This document shows positions 1,643 through 17,897 of a DNA stretch of 64,000 bases, piece by piece. This DNA comes from an uncultured Chloroflexia bacterium (lineage in GTDB: Bacteria; Chloroflexota; Limnocylindria; Limnocylindrales; CSP1-4), in assembly GCA_963800795.1 (NCBI GenBank), contig CAWDCJ010000009.1, positions 27,475 to 91,474 on the forward strand, read 5' to 3'. Below the pieces are notes generated by a model. That model was not told the DNA's origin and did no database searches. It saw only the letters and a program-made list of their open reading frames with translations. Both the position numbers and the translations under genes were made by a program. Every line of letters begins with the position of its first letter. Position 1 is the first letter of the stretch.

Positions 1643-1951
<309 letters not shown>

Positions 1952-1953
1952 TG

Positions 1954-2076
1954 AAGGACGCGCTGATCCGGCCCATGGCGTCGTTGTCGCCTGCGGCCCC
2001 TCGCTCACGCACGCTCGGGTGCGCTCGCTCCGGTGCTCGGCTCCGCCTTGCCCTGGGCGCGGCTGAGCGCGCCCTT
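1954..2076 (-). repeat. Structured intergenic repeat, copy 1 (REP/MITE-like)
   Basis: Imperfect terminal inverted repeats 1954-1978 (aaggacgcgctgatccggcccatgg) and 2051-2076 (ccctgggcgcggctgagcgcgccctt); reverse complement of 2000-2051 matches 17020-17070 at 46 of 52 aligned positions. Confidence 0.8.
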
Positions 2077-16980: not shown

Positions 16981-16996
16981 TCGGAGACAATCGAAT

Positions 16997-17114
16997 GTCG
17001 CCGCTCCGCCGGATGCAGCGCAAGGCGGCGCGGAGCACGTGAGCGAGCGCACTCGAGGTGCGTGAGCGAGCGAGCGGACGTGCCAACGCAGCGAGGCGTC
17101 GGCGCAGTGGCGAC
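16997..17114 (+). repeat. Structured intergenic repeat, copy 2 (REP/MITE-like)
   Basis: Flanked by gtcgccgct...gccggatgc and gcgtcggc...agtggcgac imperfect inverted repeats; core 17020-17070 matches the reverse complement of 2000-2051. Confidence 0.8.
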
Positions 17115-17141
17115 GAACAAGGAGCCCGAGAGGGCGCCCTC

Positions 17142-17897
17142 GTGCGGATGCGCGCACGGGTCGAATACGACGGCACGGACTTCGCCGGATTCCAGCTCCA
17201 GCTGCGAGCCCGGACAGTCCAGGGAGAACTCGAAGCCGCGCTCGGCACCCTCTCCGGCGGTCGCCGGGTCCGGGTCGACGCGGCGGGACGCACCGACGCC
17301 GGGGTGCACGCGACGGGCCAGGTGATCGCATTCAGCTGGCCCGGGCGGCTCTCAGTGAAGGAGCTTGGCAGGGCGCTCGACGCGCTGCTGCCGGCGGATG
17401 TCGCGGTTCGCGGCCTTCGCCGGGCCCCGCTCGGGTTTCGCCCTCGCTACGCGGCGCGGTACCGGGAGTACCGCTACACCGTCTGGAACGGGCCGCGAAG
17501 CCCGCTCCGCGAGCGGTTCGCGCTCGGGGTGCGGGACCCGCTCGACACCGCCGCGATGGCGCGGGCCGGGTCGGTCCTGGTGGGCCGGCACGACTTCTCG
17601 GCCTTCGGGGCGGCGGACCGCCAGCCGGTCCGGACCCTTCACGGGGTCTGGGTGCGGCGGGAGGGCAGGCTCGTGACGGTGGACGTTCGCGGGGACGCCT
17701 TCCTGCGGCAGATGGTGCGGCGGATCGTCGCGGCCCTCCTGCTGGTGGGCCGCGGAGAGGTCGAGGTATCGACGGTGGCCGTGGCGCTCGCGTCGCGGCA
17801 GCCGGCCTTCAACGGGGCAGCTGCCCCGGCGAAGGGGCTGTGCCTGCGGCGGGTCGTCATGGGACGGGTCGCGGGGGAGATGAACGGAGACACATGA
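17142..17897 (+). CDS. truA: tRNA pseudouridine(38-40) synthase
   Basis: GTG 17142; [29 protein letters not shown]. Confidence 0.97.

Follow-up and report, generated by a model that had tools for sequence, protein, structure and literature searches.

Two spacers of one ribosomal superoperon hold similar palindromic sequences in opposite orientations, which raises the question of what such an element is and whether it acts on the ribosomal genes around it. We analysed the window (the whole 64,000-nt stretch presented here), the genome that carries it, and its relatives within Limnocylindria. Members of this class are abundant, uncultured soil and freshwater Chloroflexota. To our knowledge, almost none of their non-coding biology has been characterised.

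Two copies in the ribosomal superoperon

A first reading from sequence only had described a dispersed element with a 52-nt conserved core. A blastn search against the whole genome recovered the underlying alignment, with the reverse complement of 2000-2051 matching 17020-17070 at 88.5% identity (52 nt aligned, 5 mismatches, 1 gap; E ~1e-6). Inspection of the sequence also bore out the central hairpin GCGCAC/GTGCGT with GAGCGAG directly repeated on either side, and the CAACG placed exactly 13 nt past the second GAGCGAG in both copies. The extent given earlier, 1954-2076, proved to be the exact end-to-end span of the closing stem. Conservation of the core was upheld, but the conserved part is an apex of ~70 nt, not 52 nt. 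Similarly, the two copies are both real, but the genome holds six, four of them outside the window.

Copy A (1954-2076, minus strand) fills the rpsJ-rplC spacer and was detected by nhmmer at E 8.9e-24 and by covariance model R1 at 119 to 113 bits. Its G-rich strand ('GCAAGGCGG') is the minus strand, antisense to rpsJ and rplC, and folds into a rod at -61 to -71 kcal/mol. The closing stem P1 is formed on the minus strand by AAGGACGCGCT (1954-1964) pairing with AGCGCGCCCTT (2066-2076), and it covaries among sites and species. The conserved apex (1982-2051, minus strand) runs from CAAGGCGG to CAACG, is covered by the consensus of 117 copies with its invariant columns, and consists of the central hairpin (plus-strand ACGCAC at 2007-2012 and GTGCGC at 2019-2024) together with tandem G.A blocks.

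Copy B (16996-17115, plus strand) occupies the rplQ-truA spacer (nhmmer E 6.8e-26; covariance model 115 bits). Its G-rich strand is the plus strand, sense to rplQ and truA, and folds at -74.1 kcal/mol (z -4.5), compared with -57.8 for the reverse strand. The apex lies at 17020-17089 (plus strand), with the central hairpin formed by GCGCAC (17047-17052) and GTGCGT (17058-17063).

Pfam searches established the flanking genes as S10/L3 and L17/TruA, in agreement with the spacers named in the earlier reading. The gene rpsJ (ribosomal protein S10; 1643-1951, plus strand; PF00338, E 5.6e-39) ends with a TGA at 1949-1951, leaving 2 nt to the base of copy A, and rplC (ribosomal protein L3; 2088-2696, plus strand; PF00297) starts 11 nt beyond the copy. 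The stop codon of rplQ (ribosomal protein L17; 16627-16980, plus strand; PF01196) lies 15 nt ahead of copy B, which is followed by truA (tRNA pseudouridine synthase; 17142-17897, plus strand; PF01416), starting at GTG 17142 or ATG 17148.

Separately, a small conserved hairpin, GGCGCCC-GAGA-GGGCGCC, ends every rplQ-truA spacer of the genus, whether filled or empty. In this genome it reads GAGCCC-GAGA-GGGCGCCC (17119-17141), stands directly ahead of the truA start, and contains a likely Shine-Dalgarno sequence, GAGAGGG. Possible roles for this hairpin, separate from the rod element, are occlusion of the ribosome-binding site or stabilisation.

Fold, covariation and the selected strand

The element is ~125 nt long, and every copy at every site forms the same unbranched rod on the G-rich strand. 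This strand folds 3-16 kcal/mol better than its complement, on which the folds are weaker and inconsistent. The outer stems P1-P2, ~28 nt per side, have site-specific sequences yet remain complementary, and they close the ~70-nt apex, in which Watson-Crick blocks alternate with tandem G.A/A.G pairs. The class-wide consensus of 117 copies reads n(28) aAGGCG nngnc GAGcAc nn GAGCGAGCGCAC loop GTGCGTGAGCGA gngng CG n A gnngn CAACGc n(28). In the apex, 5'-GA-3' stands opposite 5'-GA-3' at four places, one of which (columns 40-41/101-102) is replaced by Watson-Crick pairs in some copies, and one G.U is invariant. These G.A and G.U features exist only on the G-rich strand, the opposite strand having U.C/C.U and A.C mismatches in their place.

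Covariation was assessed in alignment A1, which comprises 45 sequences and a 42-pair structure. The results showed that 87% of cells were paired, compared with 73.5% after shuffling and at most 46% in slid-partner controls. The covariation score was 0.341 against 0.116 for shuffled alignments, and 0 of 500 shuffles equalled it. Among the 20 paralogues of a single genome (G207), 93% of cells were paired versus 65.5%, and 35 of the 42 pairs had changed on both sides. Part of this outer-stem covariation could have arisen without selection, through arm-to-arm templated repair (fold-back copying).

To our reading of the free stems P1-P2, the pairing is kept on one strand. G.U pairs far outnumber A.C mismatches, which are the G.U pairs of the other strand. 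The G.U : A.C ratio was 32 : 5 in the 13 antisense copies of G207, 61 : 20 in antisense copies class-wide, 20 : 8 in sense copies class-wide and about 178 : 60 in all 117 copies, and it was ~2-3:1 at each of the four sites occupied in the genus. By mismatch type, A.C occurred at a background level like that of the other mismatches and G.U was enriched three to four times, with G.U counts possibly inflated somewhat, as the alignments were fitted with the covariance model on the G-rich strand. The finding of the same ratio in sense and antisense copies argues against a mutational strand bias linked to transcription or replication. It argues equally against selection on the mRNA of the flanking genes, since antisense copies show the G.U excess on the strand that is not mRNA. 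Both were rejected as causes of the pairing. From these model-fitted alignments, the maintained pairing strand appears always to be the G-rich one, whatever the direction of the neighbouring genes.

The rate of change was then compared with that of adjacent coding sequence. Orthologous copies at rpsJ/rplC had a core identity of 0.836 and an outer-stem identity of 0.718, and fourfold sites of the adjacent rplC-rplD had 0.676. The core thus evolves more slowly than fourfold sites, which indicates purifying selection in place. Taken with the strong covariation and the strand-specific wobble, the slow core points to selection on a folded single strand and not to mere selfish debris.

Several other identities were tested. 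Rfam 15 gave no match in the window at the gathering threshold, and none at E<=1 for four loci on both strands. Blastn against 5,426 E. coli genomes, plasmids and phages matched nothing, and no match was found in viral contigs; a match to an already described family, which the earlier reading had named as an outcome that would undo its proposal, was therefore not found in these collections. Scans for promoters and terminators near the two copies in the window detected none, a position-specific AT profile of 122 copies gave no signal, and a T-run followed the hairpin in 13% of copies versus 12% in the control. An intrinsic (Rho-independent) terminator was rejected, there being no terminator-like sites and no U-tract excess. 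Coding sequence was rejected because the core carries 1-nt indels and variable loops and the ATG frames are inconsistent between copies. Integron attC sites have conserved R''/R' ends and a variable centre, and occur in promoterless cassette arrays with an IntI integrase. The present pattern is the reverse, with a conserved centre and variable ends, and the neighbours are core housekeeping genes, so attC was also rejected.

Distribution and turnover

A profile search of the assembly (15 contigs, 2.65 Mb, 71% G+C) found exactly six full-length copies (E 1e-24 to 1e-28); no further match fell below E 0.5. The four copies outside the window comprise a tandem pair on contig C8, one copy on C13 and one on C14. 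In the genus, BLAST detected the element in 21 of 25 genomes, and all ~55 copies in the 25 genomes lie at four orthologous intercistronic sites. These are the S10-L3 junction (rpsJ/rplC), the L17-TruA junction (rplQ/truA), a junction identified by Pfam between a DnaB_C/KaiC-like ATPase and inorganic pyrophosphatase (ppa) with 1-3 tandem copies, and a junction between cytochrome b and its C-terminal (subunit-IV) partner, where the hairpin overlaps the last cytochrome b codons and the stop.

Two of these sites have further features. The tandem arrays at ATPase/ppa (C8:97817-98051 in this genome; also L012 and L013) have a period of ~117-119 nt and 1-3 units. The inner units have no 3' closing arm of their own, and the arm of the last unit complements all the identical 5' arms, which suggests slipped duplication of 'arm plus apex' units. 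This genome also carries two diverged FeS/FAD oxidoreductase-cytochrome b-subunit IV-Rieske clusters (C13:13194-16352 and C14:34282-37371), each with its own rod element and different closing stems; most relatives showed one cluster. The two clusters are either true paralogous operons or the product of two strains binned together.

Across the class, the covariance model detected copies in 90 of the 301 genomes, which represent 25 of the 57 genera, with 1-26 copies per genome, and near-complete genomes held 6-26 copies. The matches fall essentially in one family (f1), with weaker ones in f3, and the sister family with small (1.1-Mb) genomes gave zero matches to the model. An exact-core scan of species-representative genomes returned at least 120 matches, and among the matches listed nearly all were MAGs of Limnocylindria, Limnocylindrales or Chloroflexota. 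As judged from these searches, the element family appears restricted to a single family-level clade of Ca. Limnocylindrales (Chloroflexota).

A few copies were seen elsewhere. High-scoring full-length copies lie on short contigs from MAGs of other phyla (L070 and L121, labelled Eisenbacteria; L081, labelled Methylomirabilota), and one genome of another family (f4; G311) carries the element. The copies in MAGs of other phyla and in G311 are likely to be mis-binned Limnocylindrales contigs, with lateral transfer less likely.

Dozens of unrelated gene contexts host the element. In the class they include the housekeeping junctions rplQ/truA, rpsJ/rplC, rpsI/argF, recA/recX, nuoD/nuoH and nuoK/nuoL, and further lexA/dnaB, the atp operon, infB, lon and argJ/argB. 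The recurrent neighbours are housekeeping genes only, and no transposase, special gene or partner gene recurs among them. Copies sit a few nucleotides past the upstream stop codon, sometimes including it, in tiny spacers and in either orientation. Between co-directional genes the G-rich strand was antisense in 37-40 copies and sense in 15-16. Convergent flanks accounted for 7-13 cases and divergent flanks for 1-2, i.e. divergent promoter regions are avoided.

At four loci (L202, L207 and L197 in G207; L220 in G182), an extra motif occurs immediately beyond the hairpin, between it and the downstream gene. Read in the direction of that gene, the motif is GCAAGG(T/C)AGTTC, and it lies ~10 nt ahead of the start codon (nuoH, nuoL, argB). 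The motif resembles the internal GCAAGGCGG and, from its sequence and position, could supply a ribosome-binding site.

We then examined the turnover of individual sites. For rpsJ/rplC, 31 genomes were searched and rpsJ was found in 22. The results showed 11 filled sites (antisense), 8 empty ones with a 7-10-nt spacer, 1 inverted copy (G001) and 2 remnants of 40 and 61 nt. These states are interspersed on the tree of the adjacent genes, and the closest relative (sister) of this genome, G005, is empty. At rplQ/truA there were 11 filled, 12 empty (35-38 nt) and 5 decayed sites, and one decayed site (G004) keeps the outer hairpin only. The sister genome is empty at rpsJ/rplC and filled at rplQ/truA, and G018 shows the opposite. 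The rplQ/truA copy is antisense in G207 and sense in the genus of this genome. In the three genomes of genus g4 most sites are common, and orientation differs between species at four orthologous sites. A family of only two copies, fixed across relatives, would by the earlier reading have pointed to a regulatory RNA; what we found were six copies in this genome and polymorphic sites.

These data bear directly on the reading that the element is a cis-regulatory RNA of ribosomal protein operons, serving in the rpsJ/rplC spacer and downstream of rplQ as an attenuator or as a binding site for an r-protein. The position of two copies inside the S10-spc-alpha superoperon fits such a role, as does the recurrence of the rplQ and rpsI junctions as hosts. 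However, the selected strand is antisense at rpsJ/rplC, this site is empty in 8 of the 22 genomes of the genus, the closest relative among them, and inverted in one, and 12 genomes are empty at rplQ/truA. The same element also stands at recA/recX, nuoD/nuoH, cytochrome b, ppa, lexA/dnaB and argJ/argB, and no Rfam r-protein leader matched. An element that is antisense, dispensable and present in many contexts is not an S10-operon regulator, and we regard this reading as highly improbable. The earlier argument against a polarity-dependent regulator of the ribosomal operon is thereby strengthened, as the element occurs in many contexts and is present, absent or inverted at the same spacers within a genus.

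The age of the copies was considered next. In G207, paralogues are 61% identical overall (0.41 in P1/P2, 0.73 in the core, 0.77 for the best pair), which indicates that there was no recent burst. Across species, copies cluster by site and not by genome, showing that they have not been homogenised, and concerted evolution was rejected on the same ground. At argJ/argB, 5 genomes are empty with an overlapping stop/start (GTGA or TGATG) and 3 are filled. Two of the filled genomes (G095, G281) have the overlapping TGA at both ends of the element, the arrangement expected after an insertion with a short stagger; it would equally allow slippage to remove the hairpin precisely. In the same region of genus g4 (L281-L288), element-free genomes have two overlaps, ACGTGAGC (GTG start) and CTGATGTC (ATG start), whose distribution does not follow ArgB similarity. 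This hints at repeated junction remodelling or at recombination between species.

Such observations could suggest a MITE moved in trans by some transposase and purely selfish, with the apex as transposase recognition module, and with a TGA (TNA-type) target and survival only outside genes explaining the position at stop codons. The many contexts, both orientations, clean empty sites and tandem arrays agree with this, and so does the TGA at both ends of two independent argJ/argB insertions (G281, G095). Against it, the termini are not conserved: the outer ~28 nt per side are 'n' in the consensus, with the low P1/P2 identity given above, and no TIRs were found. Among 124 copies, TSDs of 2-4 nt at the hairpin bases were as frequent as expected. 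A separate test gave no enrichment of TGA, TAG or TAA on both sides (TGA 25 versus 21.6 expected). G207 contains no near-identical paralogue pairs, and no donor was found for the lineage-restricted argJ/argB copy of G095, the best other match being 81-90% identical in the core only. No transposase gene recurs beside the copies, and the RAYT/Y1 transposase domain PF01797 had zero matches in this genome and six relatives, with positive controls matched in 6 of 14 genomes. Orthologous copies are also conserved beyond fourfold sites, unlike selfish fossils. A selfish MITE is therefore unlikely in our judgement. REP/REPIN-RAYT was rejected as an identity for a family with no PF01797, made of one 125-nt rod in 1-26 copies with a mean paralogue identity of 0.61. 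The first proposal of a DNA-level mobile or REP-like element accordingly survives in part: the element is dispersed and indifferent to orientation, but current mobility finds no transposase, termini, general TSD or donor to go with it.

What the sites record is long vertical inheritance, repeated clean loss, decay by internal deletion, tandem duplication, and opposite orientations at one site across species. Whether precise loss or regain occurred at a polymorphic site was judged from a local tree only.

The spacers also bear on the possibility that the copies are independent multicopy small RNA genes transcribed from the G-rich strand, producing for example a protein-sequestering or scaffold RNA. 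The element has the pattern typical of a functional RNA: its closing helix varies and covaries, its internal loops are conserved, and it contains tandem G.A and a G.U that never changes. One strand is also selected whatever the neighbours. However, element-free spacers measure 7 nt at rpsJ/rplC or zero at argJ/argB, so there is no room for a promoter; copies have no AT-rich -10 at a fixed distance and no U-tract; and individual copies are dispensable. We consider small RNA genes very doubtful.

Another reading takes the element as a chromosomal ssDNA site, in which the G-rich hairpin, formed in replication, repair or recombination, is bound or processed by a hairpin-specific host protein independently of transcription, with the stems kept by fold-back (template-switch) copying. 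It would account for selection of the same strand in any gene orientation, for conservation kept where orientation differs at orthologous sites, and for the lack of a promoter or terminator on the G-rich strand. Stems that reach and sometimes enter the upstream stop or coding end, as at the cytochrome b site and in several G207 copies, look as if copied from arm to arm, and the deletions are clean and of hairpin size. Weighing against it, the 7 genomes searched for PF01797 contain no Y1/HUH transposase, and the significant 40:16 bias in gene orientation needs an extra filter at the RNA or transcription level. Copies A and B lie in opposite orientations 15 kb apart in one operon, so no simple replication-strand rule applies. 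We also know of no chromosomal system that uses conserved 125-nt hairpins as an ssDNA site, which counts against this reading. On balance it seems quite unlikely.

Preferred reading and comparison with known systems

The explanation we favour, and hold to be somewhat probable, is that the element represents an undescribed, ancient family of ~125-nt 'rod' palindromes whose folded G-rich strand is under selection, a counterpart of ERIC/REP and not an S10-operon regulator. The working form would be the folded G-rich single strand, as RNA or ssDNA, with the apex recognised by a putative lineage-specific protein. When present in a transcript, the G-rich strand would make a very stable intercistronic or 3' hairpin that could block an exonuclease, ribosome or polymerase, and the complementary orientation would give a weaker hairpin, better tolerated inside operons. 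Such a transcript barrier may be why the strong orientation is scarce between co-directional genes (~30%; 40:16). As ~70% of the co-directional copies are antisense and lack a promoter and U-tract, those copies could act as RNA only if transcription ran antisense or read through.

A more specific version is also conceivable, though we think it rather unlikely. The element would be a hairpin of the chromosome, and a putative lineage-specific protein would bind its G-rich strand in the form of ssDNA or of antisense or read-through RNA. The element would be indifferent to gene direction and invert in situ, and fold-back copying would regrow its closing stem as far as the stop codon next to it. 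It would then amount to host-maintained 'hairpin punctuation' of operons, neither transposon nor cis-regulator.

The favoured reading, an ancient family of rods selected on the G-rich strand, would give Limnocylindria their counterpart of ERIC/REP, with hundreds of independent copies, near-saturated covariation and purifying selection in situ. The evolutionary evidence is unusually clean, and orthologous sites add to it cases of clean loss, of decay and of orientation that differs. A strand paradox comes with it: the strand on which pairing is kept is the same whichever way transcription runs. This bears on a long-standing question about ERIC and REP, namely whether they work through RNA or through ssDNA, or are no more than selfish DNA. 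In practice, the covariance model lets annotators mask or label rods and so avert their miscalling as small ORFs or r-protein regulators.

Among known systems, structured RNAs of the Rfam type resemble the rod in having helices that covary, internal loops that are conserved, an invariant G.U, tandem G.A and a slower-than-neutral rate. They differ in that the rod has no set association with any class of genes and no set direction relative to transcription, and its copies are individually dispensable. Correia elements (CREE/NEMIS) and other bacterial MITEs are likewise inverted-repeat elements that form long hairpins. They are 100-160 bp long and are co-transcribed with their neighbours as long RNA hairpins, and MITEs are characterised by conserved TIRs and by TSDs, in many cases with a parent IS. 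The rod, in contrast, has no TIRs, general TSD or parent IS.

REP/REPIN sequences are extragenic palindromes with predicted ssDNA or mRNA hairpins, found behind genes or between cistrons and in tandem clusters, as are the rods, and roles in mRNA stabilisation and termination have been proposed for them (PMC3116915, PMC2817692, PMC3733652). However, REPs are 20-40-nt units, usually in more than 100 highly similar copies and as inverted doublets beside a RAYT gene (PMC3116915, PMC2817692, PMC3733652), whereas the rod is a single 125-nt unit in 1-26 copies, with 61% paralogue identity and no Y1/RAYT in the 7 genomes searched.

ERIC/IRU elements of Enterobacteriaceae are described in PMC3184786, in statements citing Hulton 1991 and Wilson & Sharp 2006, as imperfect palindromes of ~127 bp. 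The rod shares with them a length of ~125 nt, an imperfect palindrome spanning the whole element, a low to moderate copy number, transcribed intergenic or intercistronic sites, both orientations, presence or absence among relatives, and the lack of an identified transposase. Effects of ERIC at the RNA level on the stability of upstream mRNA are also described there on the authority of De Gregorio 2005. Elements of the ERIC type carry TIRs, target duplications and a flanking TA (PMC3184786). In contrast, the rod has no sequence similarity to ERIC, belongs to a different phylum, has site-specific termini and no general TSD, and combines an apex built on tandem G.A with strand-specific selection independent of gene direction. 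The rod thus shows neither the TIRs and general TSD that define ERIC nor the RAYT, short doublets and high similarity that define REP/REPIN. In behaviour, the systems closest to it are ERIC and, more loosely, REP/REPIN.
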